From positions 352,001 through 416,000 of the forward strand of contig CBDEFO010000007.1 of assembly GCA_965237525.1 (NCBI GenBank): a stretch of DNA of 64,000 nt, given 5' to 3'. A program made the position numbers and the translations under genes. This stretch comes from Candidatus Latescibacterota bacterium. Lineage in GTDB: Bacteria; Latescibacterota; CBDEFO01. The notes beneath the pieces were generated by a model. It was not told the origin of the DNA. It did not search any database and saw only the letters and a program-made list of their open reading frames with translations. Of the stretch, positions 21,952-63,016 are shown piece by piece; position 1 is the first letter of the stretch, and every line of letters starts with the position of its first letter.

Positions 21952-21970
21952 CCCGATAGATTCAATCGGG
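21952..21970 (+). repeat. 19-bp palindromic micro-element
   Basis: CCCGATAGATTCAATCGGG. Confidence 0.85.
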
Positions 21971-27251: not shown

Positions 27252-27586
27252 GTTAGCACTTCCCATAACATTCAGAGAAACGATGGCCAAAATTTGAAAG
27301 ACCCAAAATGGGGGGAACGCCGTTATGTTCAGAGCGATTCTTTTGGTATATTTCAGTTTTCTGTCTGTTCATGCCGTGGCCTTTGAAACAAGCCTCGGAC
27401 CATTTGAGAGCCGTAAACGTTTTCGGTCTCCATCTGATTCTCTACGACTCCATAGCGCCCCATCTATCCACTCGTGGGTCATAAAGAATCTAAAAGTAAT
27501 ATCAGGTGCCGAAATTGCATACGATCAAAAACGCTTTAGGACTCTAGCAACAGGTCTATTTGTAGCTGAAAACTCGGGCAGCATTA

Positions 27587-29107
27587 GAAGCCTTGTGAAA
27601 AACCCTTAGATTCAGAAAATAGTATAAAACAAGCATTGATAAAGCAGCTCCGATGTATTATATTATGTTATTGATAATATTATACATGGAGGAAACAATG
27701 ACCCCACAAAAGCAGGAACAGACAAATCCGATGTTTCACTATTTTCAGATGGAGGATTTAGTTCCCGAGGATCATATCCTTCGTCAGATTGATGAGGCAG
27801 TTGATTTTTCATTTGTACGAGACGTTGTATCAGATTGTTATTGCCCTGACAATGGCAGACCCGGTATTGATCCTGAATTAGTTGTTCGAATGATCCTTAT
27901 TGGCTATCTGTATAATTTGAGTGAGAATCGGCTCTGTCAGGAAGTGGGGATGCATGCGGCATATCGGTTGTTTTGTCATCAGACATTTGATGATGCGGTT
28001 CCGGATAGGAGCACGATCAACAAGCTTCGCAATCACAAGTGGGCATCCAGTGGGTTGTTTGAACGGATAATGCGTCAGGTAGTCCAGTGTTGCATAGATG
28101 TCGGTCTTGTGAGCGGTAAACACCTTAGTGTCGACGGCACTCAGATACAAGCTGATGCTTCAGTGAAAAGTATTGAGCCGATAGAACCCCCTGTTTCTCT
28201 TGATGATTATCTCAAGGGAATCGGTTTTGAAGGTGATAAGACAAAGGGTAGGTCCGGGCATCCTCAGGATAAAGACTTTCATGGTGAAAAGTGGACGAAC
28301 CAAACACACCGTTCGACTACAGACCCCGACGCGCGCTTATACAGCAAATCGAAGGGCAAAGGGGCTTTTCTCTCGTTTATGGGCCATGATCTGATCGACA
28401 CAAAAAGCAGAGTAATCCTTGAGACTCAGGGCACGCAGGCGACAGGGACAGCAGAGCCCGAAAGTGCCCTTAAGATGGTAGATGACCTTGAAACATACAC
28501 CATGCCCAAAGACATTCAGACACTTAGTGCCGATACCGGTTACGGTTCTGGTAATTTTATCGCTGATGTACTTGACCGGGGAATCATACCCCATATTCCT
28601 CTGCGAGCCGATGAGAAGATTGAACCGATTCCTACATGGAAAAACAAGACAAATCCAGCACATATTCAGGCCGAACGGGATAGAAAAGTGCGAGAGGCGA
28701 AAGCCAGAAATCATGCACGGTCTATCTCATTAACAGCTGACTACAAACTCTCCCGGAGACTCCGTAAACGCAGTGAACATATCTTTGCTGAAGCCAGGCA
28801 ACAACACGGTATGGGACGAGCCCGTTACAGAGGACCAGCCTCACTGAATGAACAGTTGAATCTTGTTGCAACAGTACAGAATCTCAAGAGGCTTGTATCT
28901 TTCATAAGAAGGGGGAAAGCGTCTATGTGTGCCCTGTCTGTCAAAGACAGTGCATCCTGTTCTTCAAACAGCTCCTGTTCCTTGCTGACCAGAACTCTGA
29001 TAAGACTATTTTGCTTATTCCACAGCAAAACGATACGATATGCTACTCTTTGACCCATAATCGGCGCTTCAGACGCTGCCTGGGACATAACTATTTCACA
29101 AGGCTTT
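27587..29107 (+). mobile_element. IS1182-family insertion sequence, copy 1 (1521 bp)
   Basis: Terminal IRs GAAGCCTTGTGAAA / TTTCACAAGGCTTT; TA (or TTA) target duplication. Confidence 0.9.
27653..29053 (+). CDS. IS1182-family DDE transposase
   Basis: DUF772-like N-terminus (GRPGIDP, VPDRSTI); VDGTQIQADAS, ADTGYG and RSEHIFAEA. Confidence 0.9.
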   Translation: MYYIMLLIILYMEETMTPQKQEQTNPMFHYFQMEDLVPEDHILRQIDEAVDFSFVRDVVSDCYCPDNGRPGIDPELVVRMILIGYLYNLSENRLCQEVGMHAAYRLFCHQTFDDAVPDRSTINKLRNHKWASSGLFERIMRQVVQCCIDVGLVSGKHLSVDGTQIQADASVKSIEPIEPPVSLDDYLKGIGFEGDKTKGRSGHPQDKDFHGEKWTNQTHRSTTDPDARLYSKSKGKGAFLSFMGHDLIDTKSRVILETQGTQATGTAEPESALKMVDDLETYTMPKDIQTLSADTGYGSGNFIADVLDRGIIPHIPLRADEKIEPIPTWKNKTNPAHIQAERDRKVREAKARNHARSISLTADYKLSRRLRKRSEHIFAEARQQHGMGRARYRGPASLNEQLNLVATVQNLKRLVSFIRRGKASMCALSVKDSASCSSNSSCSLLTRTLIRLFCLFHSKTIRYATL

Positions 29108-29431
29108 TAGAGGAACCTACTATGGCGTGATTTCTTACCTTTCGGTAGAGGACTACAATAGGTTCAGGGGAGCAAGGAAGGATTTTGAATATGCGCAGAA
29201 AGATACTATTGAATATCTCCAATATCGGGCCGAAGGTACCGGCTTTATCCGTTTGGACAATCACGTCATATCAGTCGATCTTACAAGTCAGAACGCGGCT
29301 AATTTGCTTCAGGTAAGAGACCCAGTTGTTGAGTTCTGGATCAGAGTCATCGATAAAGATTCCAAGCCTATAGGCTGGTATCTTACTCATGATGAATTCG
29401 TAACCAAGGTACATCAGAGATCCTACACCAA

Positions 29432-32299: not shown

Positions 32300-32945
32300 G
32301 CGCCGACCGCCAAGAACACGATGCCCGCAAGCCCGACGAGGCGGGCTTCGCAGCAGAGCTACAGACGTGAGGTGCACAGGGTGGAGGTCACTCAACTTGC
32401 GTGAACGGACCTGCGAATTGGCCACAAAGGATCCCACGATGCCGGACAAACTCTTCAATTGTGAAGTGGTTCGTTGGCGTTTGCCGTAAGACGAGGCCGG
32501 GATGATTCGCGGCGAGAAAGAACTCGGTGAGCTTCCACCTGACATGATATATGTGTCGTACCCGAACGCGCATTTCTTCGGGGATGAAGTCGTGTTCTTC
32601 TACGACTTCGGTCCTCAACTCGATGCCTCCACAGACCCACCCTCCTGGCCGCCCTACCGAAAGATCGTCATCCGTCCGATCTCGTGGCTGCATGAGAAGT
32701 AATAACGAGAGAAGAGGTACTGCCAAGTATGTTACTCATTCGATAACAGTCACAGGACTGGACGTTTTGCGAAATTGCAATTTTTTTAGTTTTGTAGTTC
32801 TCTCAAAATGTTTGGATGACAGATGACACTTAAACGCCAAATTGAACAAGCGCAGGGAGATGCCGTAGTCTTAGACAGGCTCTATAGACAAGCCGTAGCC
32901 GCTGGAGAGGAGAGTACTTTTAAGGAGGCAATAGCTCAATATTTA

Positions 32946-34485
32946 AAAGGCTTGTGAAATAGTTATCTTGTAGGCAGCGTCTGAAACGCCAATTATGGGT
33001 CAAACAGTAGCATATCGTATCGTTTTGCTATGGGATAAGCAAAATAGTCTCATCAGAGTTCTCGTCAGCAAGGAATAGGAGCTGTTTGAAGAACAGGATG
33101 CACTCTCTTCGACAGATAGAGCACATGCAGATGCTTTCCCCCTTCTTATGAAGGACACAAGCCTCTTGAGATTCTGTACCGTTGCAACAAGATTTAACTG
33201 TTCATTCAGTGAGGCTAGTCCTCTGTAACGGGCTCGTCCCATACCGTGCTGTTGCTTGGCTTCAGCAAAGATATGTTCACTGCGTTTACGGAGTCTCTGG
33301 GAGAGTTTGTAGTCAGCTGTTAATGAGATAGACCGTGCATGATTTCTGGCTTTCGCCTCTCGCACTTTTCTATCCCATTCGGTCTGAATATGTGCGAAAT
33401 TTGTCTTCTTTTTTCCAAGTAGGAATGGGATCAATCTCTTCACCTGATCGCAGAGGAATGTGGGGTATGATCCCCCGGTCACATACATCGGCGATAAAAT
33501 TACCTGAACCGTAACCTTTATCGGCAGCAAGTGTCCGAACGTCTTCGGGAATGGTGTACGTCTCAAGGTCATCAACCATCTTAAGGGCACTTTCGGACTC
33601 TGCTGTCCCTGTCGCCTGTGTGCCCTGTGTCTCAAGGATTACTCTGCTTTTTGTGTCCCCGATAGATTCAATCGGGGATCAGATCACGGCCCATAAACGA
33701 GAGAAAAGCCCCTTTGCCCTTTGATTTCCTGTACAAGCGGGCGTCGGGGTCTGTAATCGAACGATGTGTTTGGTTCGTCCACTTTTCACCATGAAAGTCT
33801 TTATCCTGAGGATGCACAGACCTACCCTTTGTCTTATCACCTTCAAAACCAATTCCCTTGAGGTAGTCATCAAGAGAAACAGGAGGTTCTATCGGCTCAA
33901 TACTCTTCACTGAAGCATCAGCTTGTATCTGAGTGCCATCAACACTAAGGTGTTTACCGCTCACAAGACCGACATCTATGCAGCACTGGACTACCTGATA
34001 CATTATCCGTTCAAACAACCCACTCGATGCCCACTTGTGATTGCGAAGCTTGTTGATCGTGCTTCTATCCGGAACCGCATCCTCAAATGTCTGATGACAA
34101 AACAACCGATATGCCGCATGCATCCCCACTTCCTGACAGAGCCGATTCTCACTCAAATTATACAGATAGCCAATAAGGATAATTCGAACAACCAATTCAG
34201 GATCAATGCCAGGTGTGCCATTGTCAGGGCAATAACAATCTGATACAACGCCTAGTACAAATGAAAAATCAACTGCCTCATCAATCTGACGGAGGATATG
34301 ATCCTCGGGAACTAAATCCTCCATCTGAAAATAGTGAACAATCGGATTTGTCTGTTCCTTCTTTTGTGGGGTCATTCTTTCCTACATGTATAATATTATC
34401 AATAACATAATATAATACATTGGACCTGCTTTATCAATGCTTTTTTTATACTATTTTCTGAATCTAAGGGTTTTCACAAGGCTTC
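32946..34485 (-). mobile_element. IS1182-family insertion sequence, copy 2 (diverged; transposase frameshifted)
   Basis: Same terminal IRs in reverse; transposase broken into ORFs 33668-34375, 33370-33579 and 33000-33635; carries a 19-bp insertion. Confidence 0.9.
33658..33676 (+). repeat. 19-bp palindromic micro-element inserted in the transposase
   Basis: Absent at the equivalent site (GATC^GACAC) of IS copies 1 and 3. Confidence 0.95.
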
Positions 34486-34724
34486 TAAGAGATGCAGGTA
34501 TTCGACGGATTCGGTTTCACGATCTGTGTCACACTTACGCCAGCTTGTTGATCGCCCATGGGGAAAGTCCCAAGTATATCCAGAATCAGCTTGGACACGC
34601 GTCCATCACAACGACACTGGATCGGTATGGTCATCTGATGCCGGAGGTTCATCGGGAGGCAGCAAAGCGACTGGACGACCAGTTGTTTGGCGGGTTTAGG
34701 AGATTTACAGTAGAAAAACAGTAG
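34486..34724 (+). pseudogene. Tyrosine integrase C-terminal remnant
   Basis: RIRFHDLCHTYASLLI..GESPKYIQNQLGHASITTTLDRYGHL; the catalytic Arg of HxxR reads Cys; the N-terminus is missing. Confidence 0.85.
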
Positions 34725-45896: not shown

Positions 45897-46020
45897 TCAG
45901 AGAGAGGCAATCTATGTGAGATTGCTTCCCCCCGATAGATTCAATCGGGGGTTGCTCGCAATGACACTGGGATTTGGTCGTCATGACATTGCTTGGCTTC
46001 GTCCTTTGGTCATTGCTAGG
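45897..46020. repeat. REP-like cluster (GAGATTGCTTC...CTCGCAATGAC) containing a 19-bp micro-element at 45931-45949
   Basis: Related to 8309-8403; CCCGATAGATTCAATCGGG lies inside it. Confidence 0.6.
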
Positions 46021-46288: not shown

Positions 46289-48189
46289 TCAGTCTCCTTT
46301 GCTCTGGGCTGCGGAGTAGGACCTGTAAGCGATCAGCCCTTCTATAACGAGCCATATGGCTAAGGCTAATATTACTGATCCTAAGGCAGTTGGAATCCAC
46401 TGTTCAGCTCTGCCTGTCTTGATTATGTTCAGGGCCATCGCATATACTGTCACGATCAGCATAAAGACCATTGGCAGGACAGTGGAAAGTTGGGGTTTCC
46501 TGGATTTGAAAAGATAGACGCTTACCGTAAGGAGACCTAAGCCCGCAAGTAGCTGATTCGTTGTCCCAAAGAGCAGTAGAAGCACTATCCCCGCAGGCTG
46601 CCAGACGGTCTGTCCTGCTGCGCTTACCGTCGGAATCTTTAAAAGGCCGAAGAAACCTATGACTATGACGGCCAGAAAAGTGGCCACGTAGCGATTAGTT
46701 ATCGGGGCTATTTTCACGCTTTCGCCTATGGATTCGATATTGTAGCGCAAAAGACGAGTCGCAGAATCTAATGTTGTCATCGCAAATGCGACTACCATCA
46801 CCGAGATAAAGACGCCGGCAACTTCAACGCTTACACCGAGTTGTGAGACAAAGACCGCCGCGCCCTCGATGAAGGCATTGAGCTTCACTCCGATGCCTCC
46901 CTCGTTTATTGCCTTCCATGTTCCGTAGACATCCGTGAAGAGCTTGCCTCGTGCGCTGAATGTCGCTGCACATGCCATGATGACCAGAGTCGCCAGAAGT
47001 CCCTCAGCCAGCATAGCTCCGTAGCTGACAGCACGGGCGTCTCTTTCGTTCTGGAGCTGGCGGGCTGTTGTGCCCGATGCGACCAGGTTGTGGAACCCGG
47101 AGATGGCTCCGCAGGCCACTGTGATGAAGAGGAAGGGGAACCATGGCACAGCGGATTCATCAGAGGCTGCGTTGGGATTTATGGCGGGAGCCTCGATCTG
47201 TGGATTCATGATTACCAGACCCACGATAACTGCCGCCATGCCTAAATAGAGCTTATAGGAATTGAGGTAATCCCGCGGCTGAAGGAGCAGCCAGACGGGC
47301 AAAACTGAGGCCACAAAGGCGTAGGCCCAGAAGAACTACTATCCAGAAGGTGCGGGTGTCGGCAGCAGCGGCGTTCACGTCGACTGCAAAGGAGTCCTGT
47401 CCCTTCTGCTTGAAGTAGGCTGCAGCCTGACCCGGAAGGTTGGCGTTTCCCACTCCCATCTTGGCCGCTTTTAGTTTTGTATCTGCCAATTCGCCCGATG
47501 CAACAGCGGCATCCAGAGCGGTTCTAGCCTCAGGCTCCAGAAACCACTTATAGACAGGGATGGGATTATATACGCCGACGCCGATGAAGATGAACATAAG
47601 GGCCAAGCCCACTAGGGTCGCCGGTCCCCAAGCTGGTACGGTATTTATAGACCGCAGTGCCTATAAGAGAAGCGATAATCATCAACGAAAAGACGGGGAT
47701 AATGGCTTCAGGGTGGAGAAACGTGAATATGACAGCGATTACGAAGACAAAGAGTCCCATTGCCAAGGTGAGCAAAAAGAAGATGATCCATAAGAATAGC
47801 ATGCGGGCTCTTTCGCCTATTATCTCCCGTGTCAGATCGCCTATGGATCTGCCCTGGTGTCTGAGGGAGATGGCTAAAGCAGCAAAGTCGTGCACACCTC
47901 CCAGAAAGATAGTGCCCAAGACCACCCACAAAAGGGCCGGCAACCATCCCCAATAGACGGCCACTGCAGGACCGATGATTGGGCCAAGTCCGGCGATGGA
48001 TGCAAAGTGGTGACCGAAGAGGACGACGCGCTTTGTAGGGACGAAGTCCACTCCGTCGTTCAGTTCATTTGCGGGGGTCTTATCGCTGTCACCCAGGCCT
48101 AATATCTTGTCCCGTAGAAATGTCCCGTAGAATCTATAGGCCAACAGAAAAGCGCCTATAGATAGTACAACCGCAAATAAGGAGTTCAT
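46289..48189 (-). pseudogene. cstA: Carbon starvation protein A, two frameshifts
   Basis: GHHFASIAGLGPIIGP, LPVWLLLQPRDYL and ACGAISGFH across three frames; both shifts are extra G in G-runs. Confidence 0.85.
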
Positions 48190-52526: not shown

Positions 52527-52651
52527 GAGGAGCAAGAAGACGGATATATTGGTCGGAGGGTTCGTGATCGTAGCTATCGGCCTTTTGGTCTTTACGATAG
52601 TGCTCAAACAGGGGTTGACATTAGGGCATTATCCGCTCTTTGTGGAGTTTA

Positions 52652-54172
52652 GAAGCCTTGTGAAAAACCCTTAGATTCAGAAAGTAGTATAGAACAAGCA
52701 TTGATAAAGCAGCTCCGATGTATTATATTATGTTATTGATAATATTATACATGGAGGAAACAATGACCCCACAAGAGCAGGAACAGACAAATCCGATGTT
52801 TCACTATTTTCAGATGGAGGATTTAGTTCCCGAGGATCATATCCTTCGTCAGATTGATGAGGCAGTTGATTTTTCATTTGTACGAGACGTTGTATCAGAT
52901 TGTTATTGCCCTGACAATGGCAGACCCGGTATTGATCCTGAATTAGTTGTTCGAATGATCCTTATTGGCTATCTGTATAATTTGAGTGAGAATCGGCTCT
53001 GTCAGGAAGTGGGGATGCATGCGGCATATCGGTTGTTTTGTCATCAGACATTTGAGGATGCGGTTCCGGATAGGAGCACGATCAACAAGCTTCGCAATCA
53101 CAAGTGGGCATCCAGTGGGTTGTTTGAACGGATAATGCGTCAGGTAGTCCAGTGTTGCATAGATGTCGGTCTTGTGAGCGGTAAACACCTTAGTGTCGAC
53201 GGCACTCAGATACAAGCTGATGCTTCAGTGAAAAGTATTGAGCCGATAGAACCCCCTTTTTCTCTTGATGATTATCTCAAGGGAATCGGTTTTGAAGGTG
53301 ATAAGACAAAGGGTAGGTCCGGGCATCCTCAGGATAAAGACTTTCATGGTGAAAAGTGGACGAACCAAACACACCGTTCGACTACAGACCCCGACGCGCG
53401 CTTATACAGCAAATCGAAGGGCAAAGGGGCTTTTCTCTCGTTTATGGGCCATGATCTGATCGACACAAAAAGCAGAGTAATCCTTGAGACTCAGGGCACG
53501 CAGGCGACAGGGACAGCAGAGCCCGAAAGTGCCCTTAAGATGGTAGATGACCTTGAAACATACACCATGCCCAAAGACATTCAGACACTTAGTGCCGATA
53601 CCGGTTACGGTTCTGGTAATTTTATCGCTGATGTACTTGACCGGGGAATCATACCCCATATTCCTCTGCGAGCCGATGAGAGGATTGAACCGATTCCTAC
53701 ATGGAAAAACAAGACAAATTCAGCACATATTCAGGCCGAACGGGATAGAAAAGTGCGAGAGGCGAAAGCCAGAAATCATGCACGGTCTATCTCATTAACA
53801 GCTGACTACAAACTCTCCCGGAGACTCCGTAAACGCAGTGAACATATCTTTGCTGAAGCCAGGCAACAATACGGTATGGGACGAGCCCGTTACAGAGGAC
53901 CAGCCTCACTGAATGAACAGTTGAATCTTGTTGCAACAGTACAGAATCTCAAGAGGCTTGTATCTTTCATAAGAAGGGGGAAAGCGTCTATGTGTGCCCT
54001 GTCTGTCAAAGACAGTGCATCCTGTTCTTCAAACAGCTCCTGTTCCTTGCTGACCAGAACTCTGATAAGACTATTTTGCTTATTCCACAGCAAAACGATA
54101 CGATATGCTACTCTTTGACCCATAATCGGCGCTTCAGACGCTGCCTGGGACATAACTATTTCACAAGGCTTT
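52652..54172 (+). mobile_element. IS1182-family insertion sequence, copy 3 (1521 bp)
   Basis: Near-identical to copy 1; same IRs; TA/TTA duplication. Confidence 0.92.
52718..54118 (+). CDS. IS1182-family DDE transposase
   Basis: Differs from 27653-29053 at a handful of residues. Confidence 0.9.
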   Translation: MYYIMLLIILYMEETMTPQEQEQTNPMFHYFQMEDLVPEDHILRQIDEAVDFSFVRDVVSDCYCPDNGRPGIDPELVVRMILIGYLYNLSENRLCQEVGMHAAYRLFCHQTFEDAVPDRSTINKLRNHKWASSGLFERIMRQVVQCCIDVGLVSGKHLSVDGTQIQADASVKSIEPIEPPFSLDDYLKGIGFEGDKTKGRSGHPQDKDFHGEKWTNQTHRSTTDPDARLYSKSKGKGAFLSFMGHDLIDTKSRVILETQGTQATGTAEPESALKMVDDLETYTMPKDIQTLSADTGYGSGNFIADVLDRGIIPHIPLRADERIEPIPTWKNKTNSAHIQAERDRKVREAKARNHARSISLTADYKLSRRLRKRSEHIFAEARQQYGMGRARYRGPASLNEQLNLVATVQNLKRLVSFIRRGKASMCALSVKDSASCSSNSSCSLLTRTLIRLFCLFHSKTIRYATL

Positions 54173-54976
54173 TAAGTCGATAGGAAATATAGGAGTGGGC
54201 GCGAAGGTGAAGTTGAGAGGCTTTGAGGTGGGAAAGGTCAAGCAAGTTGAGTTTTATCCTGAACCGCAAAAAGAGGGTGTCTTTTTTGTGGTAGAGTTGG
54301 CTATCAAGAACGAATATCCTGTTATTGAGGGAACAGTGGGAGAGGTTAAGGGAGGGGGGATTGTGGGCGATAGTTTTATAAATTTAGACGTTTCGAGTCA
54401 GGGGCACCTGCCGTTTAAGGCCGGTGCTACTGTGAAGGGTAAGGAAGCTCTAGATACCGGGACACTTATGGCCAAGGCAGTCACTATGCTGGAGAGGATG
54501 ACTGAAATGTCAGAGAGGATAAGGGACGCAGAAATTGGGGGTAGATTCAAGAAGTTTGTGGAGGTAGTTCACAAGATTTCAACAGATGTGGAGGGTTTGA
54601 GCAAGGACGCCCAGTCTATGCTCACAAGGAGCGAGTCCCTAATTGCGACCGTGGAGCCGGGCCTTAAGAAGTCTATAGATAAGTTGAATGAAGACCTGGA
54701 TTACTCGAAGGAGACGTTGACGAGTCTGAACGAAATATTAGGTGACAACAGTGAGAACATAAAGGATGCGCTGGAGGCTCTCCAGAGGAGTTTGAATCAG
54801 ATGGAGAAGTTGATGTCCAATCTGGACAATCTAACTGTAGAAAATAGAGCGCAAATAGATTCGACGCTCAAAAACATGGAGGATATTTCGGCGTCTTTCA
54901 AGGATGTGGCGAGGCATCCGTGGAAGATCATATTCGGGGGTGTGAAGGGAGGACAAGGGGACAGTCGTCAGTAGCT

Positions 54977-55077: not shown

Positions 55078-55815
55078 TTGTTCAAATCCAGAGTTCCGGT
55101 CTTTGATGGAAATGTGGCTTTGGGGAGGAGGCACGATGCGAGGGTGAGCGTGGACACCCCGGAGGGTCTTCTGATGGTTATGGAAAGACTTGGAATAGAT
55201 AAGGCATTAGTTTACAATCCCTATGGGGTTACATACGATAGCGTTAAGGGGAATAGAGAGATTCTGAAAACCGTTGAGGGGTTTTCAGAGCTTGTGCCTC
55301 AGTTTGTAGCCAATTTCCCAGCTGAGTCATTTGAGGATTTTAAGGAAGGTGTTAAGGATAAAGGGATAAAGAGTCTGAGGGCATACCCAAAGACACACAC
55401 GTATCCATTCGTGTCGTGGATGGTGGGGGATTGGATGGAGTGGATAGAGGATGAGGGGATAGCCTTATGGCTCCCAATTGATGAGGTGGACATCAAGGAC
55501 CTCTATGAGATGGCAAGGGCGCATCCGGCGATAAACATAGTGCTGGTGGGGGTGCATTACACCCACCAAATTGTGATTTTTGGAATGATGGAGCACTTAC
55601 CGAATCTCTACGTGGAACTTTCACGGTATTACGTTATGGAACCTGTCGAAAGATTTGTGAGCAGATTCGGTTCCCAAAGGTTGATATTCGGCTCGGGCTC
55701 CCCTGACATGGACGGAGGGGCGTATCTTTATTATCTGAACAACTGCGGGCTATCTGACAACGTTTTGAGGGCTATCTGCCGGGATAATCTGGAGGTTCTT
55801 CTAAATGGCGATTGA
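55078..55815 (+). CDS. Amidohydrolase_2 family protein with degenerate metal motif
   Basis: FDGNV (in place of DxHxH), PNLYVELS and RLIFGSGSP; AGGAG RBS before TTG 55078. Confidence 0.75.
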   Translation: MFKSRVPVFDGNVALGRRHDARVSVDTPEGLLMVMERLGIDKALVYNPYGVTYDSVKGNREILKTVEGFSELVPQFVANFPAESFEDFKEGVKDKGIKSLRAYPKTHTYPFVSWMVGDWMEWIEDEGIALWLPIDEVDIKDLYEMARAHPAINIVLVGVHYTHQIVIFGMMEHLPNLYVELSRYYVMEPVERFVSRFGSQRLIFGSGSPDMDGGAYLYYLNNCGLSDNVLRAICRDNLEVLLNGD

Positions 55816-56563
55816 CGGAGCTAAGGTCATAGATTTTCACTGTCACATAGGCACCTGGCAGCGCTTGTGTATGTACGACGATCTGGAGGATATGATAAGG
55901 GTTATGGATTCTGCCGGGGTAGATATGGCGTGTCTCTTTAACAACTTCCGGGGGAATGCTAGTTTCGGGAACGATGAAGTAGCCAAAGCTGTGGAGCGCT
56001 ATCCGGACAGGTTCATAGGGTTTGCTTTCGTGACTCCGCACTACCCTGAGGAGGTGGAAAACGAGCTACTTAGGGTGATCGATAGACTCAAAATGAGGGC
56101 GATAAAGATATATCCTCCGTATTTTGGGAGGTCTGTGGAGGATCCCGCATGGGAAGGGATATTCAAGTTTGCAAATGAAAGGGGTTTAACGATTATATCG
56201 CACACAGATGTTACTGGCGGTCCCAGTAATCCGTCTTTCTTCGTGCCGTTAGCCCAGAAATATAAGAATGTAAAGTGGGTGTTGGGACATGCGGGCGTGA
56301 CTCCCCCAGGGAGAATTGAGGCCATAGAGGCGGCGAGAAAGTGTTCAAATATCTATCTTGAGATATGTTCGTCTTACAGCACTTTCGGGTCTGTGGAATT
56401 CCTCGTAAACGGAGCGGGGGAGGATAGAGTGTTGTTTGGGTCTGACATGCCTCTTATGGATCCGAGGATACATTTAGGGAGGGTTATGACCGCTGATATA
56501 TCTGAGAAGTCAAGACACAAGGTGTTAGGAGAGAATTCCTTAAGGCTTCTAGGTCTTAGCTGA
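55805..56563 (+). CDS. Amidohydrolase_2 family protein, copy 1
   Basis: IDFHCH, LGHAG and RVLFGSDMP. Confidence 0.9.
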   Translation: MAIDGAKVIDFHCHIGTWQRLCMYDDLEDMIRVMDSAGVDMACLFNNFRGNASFGNDEVAKAVERYPDRFIGFAFVTPHYPEEVENELLRVIDRLKMRAIKIYPPYFGRSVEDPAWEGIFKFANERGLTIISHTDVTGGPSNPSFFVPLAQKYKNVKWVLGHAGVTPPGRIEAIEAARKCSNIYLEICSSYSTFGSVEFLVNGAGEDRVLFGSDMPLMDPRIHLGRVMTADISEKSRHKVLGENSLRLLGLS

Positions 56564-56602
56564 GGATCTATTACAAATGCAAATAAAGTTTCTCCACACT
56601 TT

Positions 56603-56845
56603 GTGATTTTTGGAATGATGGAGCACTTACCGAATCTCTACGTGGAGCTTTCACGGTATTACGTTATGGAACCTGTCGAAAGATTTGTGAGCAGTTTCGG
56701 TTCCCAAAGGTTAATATTCGGGTCGGGCTTCCCTGAGATGGATGGAGGGGCGTATCTTTATTATCTGAACAACTGCGGGCTATCTGATAACGTTTTGAGG
56801 GCTATCTGCCGGGATAATCTGGAGGTTCTTCTAAATGGCGATTGA
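56603..56845 (+). pseudogene. Duplicated 3' fragment of the first amidohydrolase
   Basis: Repeats the last ~80 aa of 55078-55815. Confidence 0.85.
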
Positions 56846-57593
56846 TGGAGCTAAGGTCGTAGATTTTCACTGTCACATAGGCACCTGCCAGCGCTTGCGT
56901 ATGTACGACGATCTGGAGGATTTGATAAGGGTTATGGATTCTGCCGGGGTAGATATGGCCTGTCTCTTTAACATCCACCGGGGGAATGCTAGCTTCGGCA
57001 ACGATGAAGTAGCCAAAGCTGTGGAGCGCTATCCGGACAGGTTCATAGGGTTTGCTTTCGTGACTCCGCACTACCCTGAGGAGGTGGAAAACGAGCTACT
57101 TAGGGTGATCGATAGACTCAAAATGAGGGCGATAAAGATATATCCTCCGTATTTTGGGAGGTCTGTGGAGGATCCCGCATGGGAAGGGATATTCAAGTTT
57201 GCAAATGAAAGGGGTTTAACGATTATATCGCACACAGATGTTACTGGCGGTCCCAGTAATCCGTCTTTCTTCGTGCCGTTAGCCCAGAAATATAAGAATG
57301 TAAAGTGGGTGTTGGGACATGCGGGCGTGACTCCCCCAGGGAGAATTGAGGCCATAGAGGCGGCGAGAAAGTGTTCAAATATCTATCTTGAGATATGTTC
57401 GTCTTACAGCACTTTCGGGTCTGTGGAATTCCTCGTAAACGGAGCGGGGGAGGATAGAGTGTTGTTTGGGTCTGACATGCCTCTTATGGATCCGAGGATA
57501 CATTTAGGGAGGGTTATGACCGCTGATATATCTGAGGAGGCAAGACACAAGGTTTTGGGAGAAAATGCCTTAAGGCTTCTGGATCTTGGCTGA
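56835..57593 (+). CDS. Amidohydrolase_2 family protein, copy 2
   Basis: Near-identical paralogue of 55805-56563. Confidence 0.9.
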   Translation: MAIDGAKVVDFHCHIGTCQRLRMYDDLEDLIRVMDSAGVDMACLFNIHRGNASFGNDEVAKAVERYPDRFIGFAFVTPHYPEEVENELLRVIDRLKMRAIKIYPPYFGRSVEDPAWEGIFKFANERGLTIISHTDVTGGPSNPSFFVPLAQKYKNVKWVLGHAGVTPPGRIEAIEAARKCSNIYLEICSSYSTFGSVEFLVNGAGEDRVLFGSDMPLMDPRIHLGRVMTADISEEARHKVLGENALRLLDLG

Positions 57594-58965
57594 GGATCTA
57601 TTACAAATGCAAATAAAATTTCTCCACACTGCCGATATTCACATCGGCGTAGAAAATCACGGGCTGATAGATCCTTCTACGGGTCTCCATACCAGGACGC
57701 AGGACTTTGAAAAGTGCTTGGATTTTGTGTATGAGAAGGGCATGGAGGAGGAGATCGATCTGGTGGCCTTTTCGGGAGACGCTTATAAGAACTGCCATCC
57801 CAGTCCGACTCATCAAAGGATCTTTGCTTCGTTTGTTAAGAAGTTCAGCGGTGCGGGCGTTCCTTTTGTGATGGTCGTGGGGAATCATGATATTCCTGGA
57901 GCCTTTGGGAGGGCGACTTCTATTGATATTTTTGGGACTTTGGGGATTTCAAAGGTGTCTGTGGCGACCAGTCCAAGGATCTTTAATATCGAGACAAAGT
58001 CCGGGCCTATTCAGGTCGCGTGTCTGCCTTGGCCCACTCAGAGCCGTCTTATGACAAAGGACGAATATAGTGGGCTGTCTTCTTTTGAGATTACCAGGGA
58101 GATTGAGAGCATATGCGCGGACATTGTTGAGAAATTTGCTGATGAATTGGACAAGCGAATTCCATCTGTGCTCCTAGCTCACGTGACTGCGGCTGACGCG
58201 GAATATTCGAAATCTGAAAGGACTGCGGTGATAGGAAGAGATCCTACGCTCTTGACAAGTGTTCTGACAAATAGTCAGTTCGATTACGTGGCTTTGGGGC
58301 ACATACACAAATTCCAGGATTTGAATCCAAGGGGAAGGCCCCACGTTGTGTATCCGGGGAGCGTCGAGCGCGTGGACTTCGGCGAGGAGAAGGAGGAAAA
58401 GGGATTCTGTCTGGTGACTATAAAAGATAAGAGCCAAAGGCCTGGCGTCAGAACTAAATCGGAGGATGAGAATCTTTCTCTTTTTTCGGCGGTTTCCCGT
58501 GAGAAGAAAGATAACGGACCTTTGGAAAGGGAGGTGAGATATGAGTTTATAGAGACTCCCGCAAGACCCTTTGTGACCATCATATCTGATGTGAAAAAGG
58601 GGGAAGACCCGACTCAGGTTATCTTAAGAGAGATAAAAAAGCACGACCTTAAGGATGCTGTTGTGAGGGTTCTTTACACTGTGTACGAGGACGTCATAGG
58701 TTCTGTGGATTATAGGGCGATAGATAAGGCTTTAAGGGACACTGGCGCTTTCTACGTTGCAGGGATCATTCCGAAAGTTGACATCCCTGAGAGGATCAGG
58801 AGGTCTGAGGTGTCCGAGGAGTTAGGCGTCCAGGAAGCTCTGGATAAGTACATTGACAACACTCCTGAGTTTGAACCTTTTCGTAAGGAATTAAAAAAGT
58901 ACGCCGCCCAGTTAGAGGCTGAGCTTGAAAGACAGGGTGAAAATGTAGACAGCAGCTCCCGATAG
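57586..58965 (+). CDS. sbcD: Exonuclease SbcCD subunit D (Mre11 family)
   Basis: LHTADIHIG, SGD, VGNHD, YVALGHIH and YPGS..R.DFGE. Confidence 0.93.
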   Translation: MAEDLLQMQIKFLHTADIHIGVENHGLIDPSTGLHTRTQDFEKCLDFVYEKGMEEEIDLVAFSGDAYKNCHPSPTHQRIFASFVKKFSGAGVPFVMVVGNHDIPGAFGRATSIDIFGTLGISKVSVATSPRIFNIETKSGPIQVACLPWPTQSRLMTKDEYSGLSSFEITREIESICADIVEKFADELDKRIPSVLLAHVTAADAEYSKSERTAVIGRDPTLLTSVLTNSQFDYVALGHIHKFQDLNPRGRPHVVYPGSVERVDFGEEKEEKGFCLVTIKDKSQRPGVRTKSEDENLSLFSAVSREKKDNGPLEREVRYEFIETPARPFVTIISDVKKGEDPTQVILREIKKHDLKDAVVRVLYTVYEDVIGSVDYRAIDKALRDTGAFYVAGIIPKVDIPERIRRSEVSEELGVQEALDKYIDNTPEFEPFRKELKKYAAQLEAELERQGENVDSSSR

Positions 58966-59002
58966 TCCCCGATAGGTTCACTCGGGGATAGGTTCAATCG
59001 GG
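58958..59002 (+). repeat. Nested pair of 19-bp micro-elements; supplies the sbcD stop codon
   Basis: Inner CCCGATAGGTTCACTCGGG at 58968-58986 in GTC^GAT context. Confidence 0.8.
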
Positions 59003-59196
59003 GGTAGACAGGAGCACCTTCTCCCTCCGTATACTGCGTAGTGCAGGGGTTGGGTTACCCAGCCCTCGGGGCGACCACTTCGTGCTTGTTGCCTCCACTC
59101 TCCTGCAAGGCAGGAAGTGCGCTGACCCCTTCAAATGTGCTATTTTTTGCTTTGTTAATCTTACCGACTGCTACTCTAAAGGGATAGTATATCACC

Positions 59197-62100
59197 ATGA
59201 TTCCTGTTAAGTTGTCATTGAGAAATTTCCTGAGTTACGGGGAAGATGTGCGCCCTTTAGATTTTTCAGGGTTTCATGTTGCGTGCCTTTCTGGGGAGAA
59301 CGGTCACGGAAAGTCAGCGCTTTTAGATGCTATGACCTGGTCTCTCTGGGGCCAAGCCAGAAAATCCAGAAGTAGGGGCGCAAACGAAGGCTTATTGAAG
59401 ATCGGTGCGTCTGAGATGAGGGTGGAATTTGAGTTCGATCTTGAGGAGCAGAGATTCAGAGTGATAAGATCCTTCAGGAGGGGAAAAGGGAGCGGGCGTC
59501 CGAGTTTGGAGTTTCAGGTCTATGATAACGATAAGGGCAAATACAGGGTCCTTTCCGATGTGTCGTCCATGAGAAGGACACAGGAGGAGATAGATGATGC
59601 TCTAAAGATGGATTACGATACGTTCATAAACTCTGCGTTTATACTTCAAGGACGGGCTGATGAGTTTACGAGGAAGACCCCGACAGAGAGGAAACAGATT
59701 CTGGCAGACATTCTAGGTCTCTCCAAGTACGATCTTCTCTGGGAGCTGTCGAGGTCTCACTATAATAAGTTGGATAATGAGATAGAAGGTTATTGTAGGG
59801 AGTCTCAAAGGATCGATGAGGAGCTTTCGCACAAGGATCTTTATAAAGAACAAATTGACGGGCTGACAGTCAGACTGTCGGAGCTGTCCAGAGGTATTGA
59901 GTCTCTGGAGAAGGTGTTTTCAGAACTTCGGGAAAAAAAGGGGGATCTAGAAAGGAAGCGAGAACAGGTAGAGGATTTGGAATCTGAACTTGACAGAATC
60001 CAGGACGAGATTGATGACATAAAGGGACAGATAGATTCATCCAGCGATCAGATCAGTGAATATGAGAAGATAATATGCAAAGAAGATGAGATTAAGAGTG
60101 ATATCTCCACGTACAATAGATTGATGGATCAGGAAAGAGAGTTTACCCAAAGACTTGGTAGGCTGAGAGATCTGGAATCTCGGAAAGCGGATGTCGATAG
60201 GAAGGTCGAAGAGGCAAAACATGAGGTTGAAAAGTGCAGGAATCTGTGGGAGGAGAGGCTCGGTTCAGCGGAAAACGTTTTAGATGAGGCAAAGGAGATT
60301 TTGAAGAGGGAAAAGGAGATTGCGAATGGGTATAAAGAGTTGATGAAGTCCAGGCGAGAAAATGAGAAGATGGAGGGTCTGAGAAGGAGTCAAGATGAGC
60401 TGCTAAAGGCGGAGCTGGAGATTCAAAGGAAAATCGAGAAGCTTAAGTCCGGGCTCGAGGTGGAGCTCGGGACCTTAAGGAATCAGATTACGGAATTGGA
60501 TAGTAAAGCAGATGCCCAAGAGCATCTCAAAGGGAGGTTGGAAAAGATCAGGCAGGAATTGGAACGCTTAGAGGTTTTAGAAAGTGAAAGTGAGAATATA
60601 AGGGATAAGGGCAGCGAATTGAACGTCAAGATAGATGGAGACATAAAGGGGGTCCAGGATTTGGAGAAGGAGATAGCGGAGGAGAACGATAAACTGGATC
60701 TGATCAAGGAGAGCCAAGATAGTTCCTGTCCGCTGTGTGAAAGCCATATAGATGAGGAAAAAAGGGAGAATATCGTAAGGAAGATGGAGGAGAAGATTGA
60801 AAAGGTGAAGGCGGAGATTGCGGTCATACAGGGGGAGTTAGAGGAGGATGAGAAAGAAAGATCGGAACTTAGGAGAAAGTATAGGGAGGCAAAGGAGGTC
60901 TTAGAGTCTCTGCCTTCGATCAGAAGCGGAGCGGCTCAGGCTGAGGCTTTGTTCAACGAAGCAGTCGAGGCTGAGGGTAAGATAGCAGAGCTTAAAGAAG
61001 ATGAGGAAGCGGTGCGAAGGAGGCTGGATGAGAGGGATTTTGCCCCAGAGGAGAGGGAGGATCTGGAGAAGGTGAAAAGACAGATCGAGAAGTTAGGTTA
61101 CAATACCCAAAAGCACGAGGAGATCGGGGAGACTCTGCAAAAGTTGAAGGGTTATGAGGCAGAAAAGGCGCGTCTGGATTCGACTTTAGAACGATACAAC
61201 GCTGCAAAGGAGGCGATACCTGGGATAAAGGAGGAGATAAGGACTGCCAAGCTATATCTAGATGAAAAAAAGTACGCCGAAAAGGAGCAGAAGGAAGTTG
61301 AGAGGGTTTTGGACGAGATCCAAAAGGTCGAATACGACAAGCGTGAGCACGAAAAGATAAGACTAGAGTTGGATAGCCTAAGCCAGGCCCCCGTACAGGC
61401 TGAGAGGCTTAGGGATGCGCGGGATAAGATAGATGCGGTAAAAGAGGTACTGAAGATATTGGAGAAGAGATTTGAAGATAGGATGAAAAGACAGGATGAG
61501 ACCAAAGGGAATGTCAAAGGATTGAAAGTGGAGATAGCGGGTACAGTAGATGTGGAGCAGAAGATCTCAGGGATTGAAAAGACGCTTCGGGATTCCAGAG
61601 TAAATAGGGAGAAGCTCCTTGGAGAACAGGGCAGCGCTCAGGCGAGGTACGATAAGTGTCTTGAACTTGAGGAGGAGAAAAAGGAGGTTACTGAGTCTTT
61701 AAGGAAGGCACAAGAGGAGAGGGATATTTACGATAAGCTTAGAAGGGCCTTCGGAAAGGATGGGATTCAGGCTCTCATAATTGAGAACGCTATCCCTGAA
61801 ATTGAAGATGAGGCGAACGATATACTGTCAAGACTGACAGATAATAAGACGCATATCTCGATCGAGTCTCAAAGGGGTCTAAAATCAGGAGGATTAAGGG
61901 AGACATTGGATATCAAGATCAGCGATGAGCTGGGGGAAAGGGATTACGAGCTTTACAGCGGGGGAGAGGCGTTCAGGACAAACTTCGCGCTGAGGATAGC
62001 CCTGTCAAAACTTCTGGCCCGGAGGGCGGGAACAAAGCTACGGACTTTAGTGATAGATGAGGGTTTCGGGACGCAGGATTCGGAGGGATTAGGACATCTG

Positions 62101-62244
62101 GTTGGAGCCATAGATAAGATAAGTAAGGATTTCGACAAGATACTTGTGGTTACGCATTTAGAGGAGTTGAAACGGGCTTTTCCCGTCAGGATTGAAGTGA
62201 GAAAAAATGCTCGATCTGGATCGGAATTCGAGATCGTTACTTGA
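59197..62244 (+). CDS. sbcC: SbcC/Rad50 SMC-family ATPase
   Basis: Walker A GENGHGKS, long coiled coil, CPLC zinc hook, YSGGE signature and Walker B IDEGFG. Confidence 0.93.
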   Translation: MIPVKLSLRNFLSYGEDVRPLDFSGFHVACLSGENGHGKSALLDAMTWSLWGQARKSRSRGANEGLLKIGASEMRVEFEFDLEEQRFRVIRSFRRGKGSGRPSLEFQVYDNDKGKYRVLSDVSSMRRTQEEIDDALKMDYDTFINSAFILQGRADEFTRKTPTERKQILADILGLSKYDLLWELSRSHYNKLDNEIEGYCRESQRIDEELSHKDLYKEQIDGLTVRLSELSRGIESLEKVFSELREKKGDLERKREQVEDLESELDRIQDEIDDIKGQIDSSSDQISEYEKIICKEDEIKSDISTYNRLMDQEREFTQRLGRLRDLESRKADVDRKVEEAKHEVEKCRNLWEERLGSAENVLDEAKEILKREKEIANGYKELMKSRRENEKMEGLRRSQDELLKAELEIQRKIEKLKSGLEVELGTLRNQITELDSKADAQEHLKGRLEKIRQELERLEVLESESENIRDKGSELNVKIDGDIKGVQDLEKEIAEENDKLDLIKESQDSSCPLCESHIDEEKRENIVRKMEEKIEKVKAEIAVIQGELEEDEKERSELRRKYREAKEVLESLPSIRSGAAQAEALFNEAVEAEGKIAELKEDEEAVRRRLDERDFAPEEREDLEKVKRQIEKLGYNTQKHEEIGETLQKLKGYEAEKARLDSTLERYNAAKEAIPGIKEEIRTAKLYLDEKKYAEKEQKEVERVLDEIQKVEYDKREHEKIRLELDSLSQAPVQAERLRDARDKIDAVKEVLKILEKRFEDRMKRQDETKGNVKGLKVEIAGTVDVEQKISGIEKTLRDSRVNREKLLGEQGSAQARYDKCLELEEEKKEVTESLRKAQEERDIYDKLRRAFGKDGIQALIIENAIPEIEDEANDILSRLTDNKTHISIESQRGLKSGGLRETLDIKISDELGERDYELYSGGEAFRTNFALRIALSKLLARRAGTKLRTLVIDEGFGTQDSEGLGHLVGAIDKISKDFDKILVVTHLEELKRAFPVRIEVRKNARSGSEFEIVT

Positions 62245-62246
62245 TG

Positions 62247-62284
62247 CCCAATCCCCGATAGACTTAATCGGGCATTCCATTGGG
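62247..62284 (+). repeat. Nested pair of 19-bp micro-elements
   Basis: Inner CCCGATAGACTTAATCGGG (62254-62272); removing it leaves a 19-nt CCCAATCCATTCCATTGGG. Confidence 0.75.
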
Positions 62285-62308
62285 GGGAAGCAAGGAGGAA
62301 AAGCGATC

Positions 62309-63016
62309 ATGGCTGCTCTTTCAAGATGGATGATTCTGGTGCATCTTGTTTGTCTGGCAGTCTCTTGCTATGCACAGGATGAGCGGCACGGCCGCTTTGT
62401 CGGGGAGGATGGCAACAAGTCCCCGATTGAATCTATCGGGGATCATATGAAAAGGGACGCCGGGATGGTACAGATCGAGAATTTCAAGATAGACAGGTAC
62501 GAGTATCCGAATATCGTGGGGGAATATCCGCTTTATAATGTGAGTTGGTACGAAGCTCAGGCTAAGTGTAAATCTAAAGGGAAACGCCTATGTTCTGAAG
62601 CAGAATGGGAAAGAGCTTGCACCGGGATGAATAATCACGTGTATCCTTATGGGAACAGTTTCGATGAAGACAAGTGCAATACGCCCCATCAAGTGGATGG
62701 AAACTGGGGACGCGACAGGGGTATTGCAAAGATAGGAAAGTGGAAAGAATGTGTCAGCGACTATGGTGTCTATGATATGAGCGGGAATGTGTGGGAGTGG
62801 GTCGATGGGGTCTACTCTTCAAGGGAGGGATGGCGTGTGGTCAAGGGGGGATCGTGGTTTCAAAACGTGAACTTCGCGACGTGTTCTGCCAGATACGGAA
62901 GATATCTGACTCCAGATTACAGGCTGGATCTGATAGGCTTTAGATGTTGTCAGTCCCCGATTGAACCTATCGGGGATCAGTCTGTAGCGGTAGAAACAGA
63001 TGGGGACCAGAATTAA
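62309..63016 (+). CDS. FGE-sulfatase (SUMF1/EgtB/PvdO) domain exported protein
   Basis: Signal peptide; RLCSEAEWERAC, GVYDMSGNVWEW and IGFRCC; AGGAGG RBS. Confidence 0.88.
   Translation: MAALSRWMILVHLVCLAVSCYAQDERHGRFVGEDGNKSPIESIGDHMKRDAGMVQIENFKIDRYEYPNIVGEYPLYNVSWYEAQAKCKSKGKRLCSEAEWERACTGMNNHVYPYGNSFDEDKCNTPHQVDGNWGRDRGIAKIGKWKECVSDYGVYDMSGNVWEWVDGVYSSREGWRVVKGGSWFQNVNFATCSARYGRYLTPDYRLDLIGFRCCQSPIEPIGDQSVAVETDGDQN
62422..62440 (-). repeat. 19-bp micro-element inside a CDS
   Basis: GTC^CCCGATTGAATCTATCGGG^GATC; translated as SPIESIGD. Confidence 0.85.
62956..62974 (-). repeat. 19-bp micro-element inside a CDS
   Basis: GTC^CCCGATTGAACCTATCGGG^GATC; translated as SPIEPIGD. Confidence 0.85.

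Follow-up and report, generated by a model that had tools for sequence, protein, structure and literature searches.

Introduction

Small dispersed repeats (SDR) of 21–27 nt were reportedly described in Nostoc by Elhai et al. in 2008. These repeats form hairpins, move without genes of their own and by no known enzyme, and nest in their own copies and in heptamer arrays. One of them, SDR5, is treated in PMC4390886. The Neisseria nuclease SsnA binds ssDNA, cleaves it next to its hairpin and requires the tag for cutting; the study demonstrates cutting, not mobility, and reports no joining of DNA by SsnA (PMC11893778). CGTC-tagged REPs, including Neisseria dRS3, have stems of 8–9 bp and loops of 4–5 nt, and no dedicated transposase is known for them (PMC3733652). 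For SDRs and CGTC REPs alike, the gene-free spread of repeats of 20–30 bases still awaits an explanation. The REP/REPIN sequences served by RAYT are abundant, short, mostly extragenic palindromes that move as doublets and leave singlets as remnants (PMC3116915). The Haloquadratum SMRs (80–110 bp; PMC3119063), with their deletion-coupled insertions, and the GC42 clusters of yeast mtDNA (PMC4478555), which have a fixed short duplication, have no transposase, target other mobile DNA and lose or change flanking bases at insertion.

We describe here a micro-element found in a window of 64,000 nucleotides (the whole stretch of DNA that was analysed) of a Candidatus Latescibacterota genome (G000). 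The element works like a Nostoc SDR and is kin to the CGTC REPs and SRMs, and it lies outside the CGTC REPs (by tag and loop), the SRMs (by pattern), REP–RAYT (by the absence of Y1) and the MITEs (by the absence of a fixed duplication). With the SDRs it shares a hairpin of 21–27 nt that is present or absent between relatives; it differs in phylum and probably in sequence, in having variable junctions and no single octamer target like HIP1, and in its visible link to nuclease-flanking repeats. In other bacteria, a GTC-tagged form of this stem-loop stands beside GIY-YIG genes of ~95 aa, the setting of NTS/SRM repeats. In G000, by contrast, the hairpin is without the tag and probably without the tail, its loop is longer and single hairpins enter genes: the GTCATC tag stands on the left side of 0 of 569 copies, the published degenerate SRM pattern also matches 0 of 569, and the tagged 9-nt form fails as well. 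The 8-bp stem fits the CGTC-tagged REPs, and forms with a tag, an A-T first pair and a CCA tail in loci L218 and L216 are CGTC-REP-like, but G000 has no CGTC or TGTC tag, its loop is 7 nt, the CCA tail is missing at the site described first below, and the micro-element moves as a single unit. The copies resemble REP/REPIN sequences in being abundant, short palindromes that are mostly extragenic; unlike in REP/REPIN systems, singlets are gained here and no RAYT is present. The likeness to SMRs and GC42 is one of description. No account of the element or of Ssn-driven mobility was found in the literature searched; subscription papers and bioRxiv supplements lay outside that search.

A filled site in one copy of an insertion sequence

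Three copies of one insertion sequence (IS) in the window were aligned. Copies 1 and 3 read CTGATC^GACACAAAAAG at 28391 and 53456, and copy 2, on the - strand, carries 19 extra bases with no shift ambiguity. The features compared were as follows.

33658–33676, - strand: 19-bp invariant core of the micro-element, equal to the net gain at copy 2
33656–33678, - strand: 23-bp hairpin unit (TC + core + GA), folding as ssDNA into an 8-bp stem and a 7-nt loop at -7.2 kcal/mol (z -3.0)
28391–28407, + strand: empty site of IS copy 1, within an intact ORF (27653–29053, 466 aa)
53456–53472, + strand: empty site of IS copy 3, within an intact ORF (52718–54118, 466 aa)

A preliminary description of this DNA had stated that exactly 19 bp were gained in copy 2 and that no target base was duplicated or lost there, and the alignment agrees. 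It had also held that the insertion arrived in an already existing IS lineage. Extended to all genomic IS copies, the alignment bears this out, with the empty 12-mer in 135 copies against 1 filled (137 matches genome-wide span the site). The 135 empty copies rule out an ancestral segment lost from the other copies.

Sequence data likewise carry the insertion. Two Logan contigs span the filled form, each with 0 differences and 0 gaps: record 2 of X1, which covers 33347–33717 (371 nt) at a depth of 10.5, and record 14 of X2, which covers 33565–33715 (151 nt). This support consists of assembled contigs, the two public runs belong to separate studies, and X1 may be the source sample of the assembly. 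Logan contigs of high depth, in which the IS copies are collapsed, lack the 19 bp. An assembly artefact is ruled out by the spanning contigs of the two runs.

The host insertion sequence

The host IS is ~1.5 kb long, consists of a DUF772 + DDE transposase and terminal inverted repeats, both of which are present, and is taken by us to be of the IS1182 type from its domain set. The features of copy 2 are as follows.

32943–34488, - strand: host IS copy 2 (transposase with DUF772 + DDE_Tnp_1 + DDE_Tnp_1_6)
33668–34375, - strand: 5' transposase fragment of 235 aa, ending inside the inserted hairpin
33409, no strand assigned: second lesion, an independent frameshifting insertion of 1 bp

The 19 bp had been thought to frameshift the transposase. 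The frame does stop inside the inserted hairpin, but the hairpin is not the sole lesion: when the 19 bp were removed in silico, the frame of copy 2 still stopped at codon 328. Because the 1-bp insertion near 33409 is independent, the hairpin may have landed in a transposase copy that was already inactive. Copy 2 is old: its identity to the young copies, two of which lie in the window at 27585–29110 and 52650–54175, is ~93%. G001, a genome of the same genus, lacks it at the orthologous site and has ~1.9 kb of other sequence there (C1:367641–369553).

G000 holds 136 near-full copies of the host IS. Insertions of at least 8 nt occurred in 2 of 152 IS matches and both were this hairpin, one in copy 2 and one in a fragment of 426 bp (86% identical, net +20). 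Insertions of this size were absent from all 134 copies of at least 98% identity, which indicates that the hairpin activity is likely older than the IS burst; at present this activity is likely low or finished. The burst itself is recent: 134 copies are 98–100% identical, and all matches make up ~4.6% of G000, whereas the 2.8 Mb compared from G001 contain 5 near-full copies.

Copy number, spread and flanking bases

The core occurs 569 times in G000 at ≤3 mismatches, and 131 of these copies are exact. In the window, the 19-mer was found at 11 sites (15 strand matches; ≤3 mismatches) against 0.03 expected. Other exact copies in the window are as follows.

21952–21970, - strand: exact core copy
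45931–45949, - strand: exact core copy
62422–62440, + strand: exact core copy, read through in frame in an ORF of 269 aa with an FGE-sulfatase domain (62207–63016)

The last ORF also holds variant core copies at 62254 and 62956. G001 has 318 core copies at ≤1 mismatch, and the core was found in none of 59 other genomes of the phylum. A looser hairpin pattern gave 328 matches in G000, 291 in G001 and 0–4 in 119 other genomes, and within one class, 16 of the 61 genomes had 4–62 matches to a related pattern. The identical 21-mer also occurs in records titled Deltaproteobacteria and Thermodesulfobacteriota and in one Nanoarchaeia contig. On that contig, which is possibly mis-binned, it frameshifts an IS256-like transposase gene (L195:507–527), a second transposase case.

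The bases next to the core are strongly biased among the 569 copies, with C at -1 in 92% and G at +1 in 93%; TC^GA accounts for 251 copies and CC^GG for 154. A methyltransferase or HIP-type target was rejected, since neither TCGA nor CCGG is over-represented (o/e 0.94 and 0.90).

Junctions and the extent of the unit

We compared G000 with 2.8 of the 4.54 Mb of G001. Of 340 comparisons at unique sites (both directions), 181 showed a shared copy and 31 a cleanly empty site; in 51 the copies were nested or clustered, and 77 could not be classified. We then discarded one duplicate, three pairs with long indels and four with poor anchoring, which left 23 ortholog pairs. The net gains in these pairs, many of which sit in repeats and so have an "empty" allele that is perhaps not the ancestral one, were 18 (3 pairs), 19 (6), 20 (6), 21 (2), 26 (2) and 27 (4), and 2 of the 6 net-19 pairs were clean insertions. 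Pairs within multicopy repeats showed nets of mainly 20 and some of 19. The genus thus offers a catalogue of junctions, consisting of the 23 anchored pairs and the pairs within repeats.

Identity to the empty allele at positions -2, -1, +1 and +2 was 0.35, 0.35, 0.39 and 0.48 in the 23 pairs, whereas the control values at 81 shared sites were 0.96, 0.91, 0.96 and 0.94. Since the inner flank bases mismatch the empty allele while the control stays at 0.91–0.96, the outer YC and GR belong to the element, and the true unit is a 23-bp hairpin, YC + 19 + GR. Most events swap out 2–5 target bases and a few duplicate 3–4; further junction types are a clean insertion at C^G and an extra 4-base CCTG/CAGG arm on the 23-mer, which gives 27. 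The preliminary description had taken the 19 bp to define the length of the element. This view was not sustained, as the nets range from 18 to 27 and the YC and GR on either side of the core move together with it. At copy 2, the exact ends of the unit are ambiguous because its outer 2 + 2 bases equal the target TCGA, and for the same reason the event resembles a clean 19-bp insertion. Taken alone, the copy-2 site is an unrepresentative case for the family.

The earlier argument against a DDE mechanism, drawn from the lack of a target duplication, is supported. A constant target-site duplication, as expected of MITEs mobilised by DDE enzymes, was not found across the family (2-bp duplication in 2 of 569 copies), and a classical DDE mechanism is unlikely; the absence of lost bases holds for the copy-2 site but not for most events.

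In 327 copies with independent flanks, positions -2 and +2 covary (T-A 142, C-G 76, T-G 19, C-A 17; Fisher p 1e-29), and the loop allele is linked to the flank class (chi-square p 0.005). Compensatory double changes number 21 at stem pair 4/16. Flanks forming arbitrary palindromes are rare (AC^GT 1, GC^GC 1). Mirror synthesis of arbitrary target bases as a general rule was ruled out by these flank data. Microhomology on either side was found in 5 of the 23 pairs (p 0.14), indicating no enrichment, and target matches on both sides were found in 2 of 23, above chance.

Insertion targets and effects on genes

As in the Nostoc SDRs, the hairpins nest in their own remnants and in heptamer arrays: 36% lie within 35 bp of the former (background 12%) and 24% within the same distance of the latter (background 4%). 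The corresponding value for GTCATTGC-type REPs is 29% (background 6%), and only 6% of copies lie near GTAG REPs. ORFs of at least 200 aa make up 73% of the genome, and 71 of the 569 copies lie well inside such ORFs, some of which are antisense shadows. Where both alleles lie in ORFs of at least 250 aa, 6 of 6 independent nets were multiples of 3, against 6 of 24 elsewhere (p 0.0016). These frame-preserving nets speak against a fixed 19-mer, which could not give multiples of 3; the in-frame gene copies have nets of 18, 21 and 27. The element contributes short in-frame peptides to dozens of genes.

Several larger repeats of G000 contain the element. A two-armed repeat of ~140 bp with GTCATTGC-type arms (C2:17900–18150 and dozens of other places) was entered once in each arm by the micro-element, which then hitchhiked (30 and 7 near-identical copies); the middle of this repeat is perhaps what is left of the first part of a GIY-YIG gene. 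At C1:85237 and 8 more places, a long repeat of many copies that includes an ORF of ~300 aa carries the element at a net of +20, with A replaced by GT + core, and is filled in G000 and empty in G001. Tandem gene duplications of ~2.8 kb at C8:738000–752700 have element copies and dimers at each leader.

Kinship with tagged repeats and Ssn-like genes

A stem-loop identical to that of the element forms an arm of a CGTC-type tagged repeat elsewhere (L146, L216, L218 and L221), and exact tagged copies number 16 in G064 and 5 in G061. A scan of metagenomes for the tagged hairpin together with a YVYI motif, a pattern selective for GIY-YIG genes, gave 10 loci. Eight of them have a complete small GIY-YIG gene (two of these eight look identical), one has a broken GIY-YIG gene and one has none. 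Several of the 10 carry the GTC-tagged hairpin on both sides of the gene, and L229 has an SRM of the published type opposite. Among 20 unselected ssn-like genes, the strict hairpin was found at 1 and a close variant at 3 more, and GTCATTGC-type REPs, judged by eye, flank 8. Protein P0001 is 56–58% identical to the product of a Neisseria gonorrhoeae ORF, presumably the SsnA ortholog. Other CCTG/CTTG-led micro-hairpins of different sequence lie inside Ssn-flanking repeats (L258, L266, L268, L232 and L241), which suggests that several parallel micro-hairpin families exist.

The sole small GIY-YIG gene of G000 (C4, 479.8–480.1 kb) has another repeat, an NTS-like one, on its flanks. The gene is intact (95 aa) and lies between inverted copies of this repeat with a dRS3-type core (C4:479800–480200); its product is 59–62% identical to P0001 and P0002 and gave only a weak NCBIfam match below the cut-off. 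No small GIY-YIG gene was found in G001, and several genomes with the exact core gave no ssn-like match. The hairpin family and ssn-like genes co-occurred weakly within one class, in 8 of 16 against 10 of 45 genomes (p 0.055), among kin that are non-independent and MAGs that are incomplete.

Mechanism of spread

We favour, with a probability of about one half, the reading that a gene-less hairpin of ~23 bp, which originated from an Ssn-type stem-loop, is patched into nicks or breaks with no DDE or HUH transposase. The reading draws on the copy number, the presence/absence between two species, the 23-bp unit, the variable junctions, the frame-preserving nets within genes, the preference for other repeats and the kinship, all of which were observed; its enzymatic steps would be as follows. 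The stem-loop would derive from the tagged repeat that flanks the genes of small Ssn-like GIY-YIG nucleases. A single-strand nuclease of the Ssn type would free the hairpin, cut targets near hairpin repeats, or both. Host repair would join the hairpin oligonucleotide via 0–4 bases of microhomology, and the tagless hairpin would be copied into nicks or breaks by patch-type repair. Among the helpers searched for, Ku was found in neither G000 nor G001, and four-helix-bundle and GxxExxY candidates were not found in G000. Several results count against the reading: the copies of G000 lack the tag that SsnA needs for cutting, the only small GIY-YIG gene of G000 lies between other repeats and none was found in G001, the co-occurrence with ssn-like genes is weak, and microhomology is not enriched. 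The sequence of the free hairpin ties it to repeats next to the genes of nucleases whose chemistry is known, which brings the question within reach of tests on a single small protein and some oligonucleotides.

A wider form of this proposal is put forward tentatively, and we consider it rather doubtful: Ssn-type GIY-YIG nucleases might drive an undescribed "cut-and-patch" mobility whose whole unit is a tag-free hairpin of 23–27 nt, crossing phyla with identical sequence, entering other Ssn repeats, transposases and genes, and writing peptides of 6–9 residues into proteins. If true, it would supply the missing enzyme for the CGTC REPs and SDR-like elements.

RNA-templated spread, by reverse transcription or RNA-templated repair of hairpin transcripts, is unlikely. 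The variable junctions with donor-derived flanks fit the flank co-conversion proposed for organelle GC clusters (PMC4478555), and G001 has two RT genes, but no RT was found in the family carriers G000, G061 and G064, the hairpin has no Rfam match, and the kinship with repeats of an ssDNA nuclease points to DNA.

Even less probable is a precise element of 19 (or 21) bp that inserts bluntly at the C^G of palindromic 4-mers and whose flanks are altered later by hairpin-perfecting template switches or mutation. Clean net-19 cases are copy 2 and C8:1336270 (both TC^GA), L113:538 (AC^GT, where the flanks are clearly those of the target) and C8:767988 (TC^CA), and such an element would fit the pairs matched by the target on both sides. 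The nets differ from 19 in 17 of the 23 pairs, however, the four inner flank bases are mostly unlike the empty allele, the scarcity of AC^GT and GC^GC indicates that the flanks do not mirror arbitrary targets, and the in-frame gene copies need other nets. Precise 19-bp insertion is thus largely refuted as a general rule and may be a minority route.

Spread in the manner of REPs, for which a RAYT/IS200 HUH transposase, since lost, would have worked in trans, appears improbable. It would fit a hairpin with no fixed duplication, the GTAG-type REP motifs in G000 and the Y1 genes of G061, G062 and G064. Against it, Y1 transposase (PF01797) gave 0 matches in G000 and G001 (96.6% and 98% complete), the element has no GTAG tag and few of its copies lie near GTAG REPs. 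HUH integration is not known to delete target bases, which also counts against this explanation. That the hairpin arose where the two ends of a larger element with a gene came together (an excision footprint or deletion product) is just as improbable, as pairs of orphan halves 120–700 bp apart numbered 2 in G000 and 2.8 Mb of G001, with no ORF >58 aa, and no such gene adjoins the 14 viral CYTG-led matches, so that a long gene-bearing form was found at none of these places.

Other genes in the window

Genes for SbcD/SbcC (Mre11/Rad50-like), which are hairpin-cutting enzymes, lie at 57586–62244 and are adjoined by element copies at 58968 and 62254, probably by coincidence. At 55805–57593, two near-duplicate ORFs of 252 aa stand in tandem 1030 bp apart, and the first encodes an amidohydrolase. 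The CstA gene at 46289–48189 is split over two ORFs (207 and 341 aa) and is possibly frameshifted.
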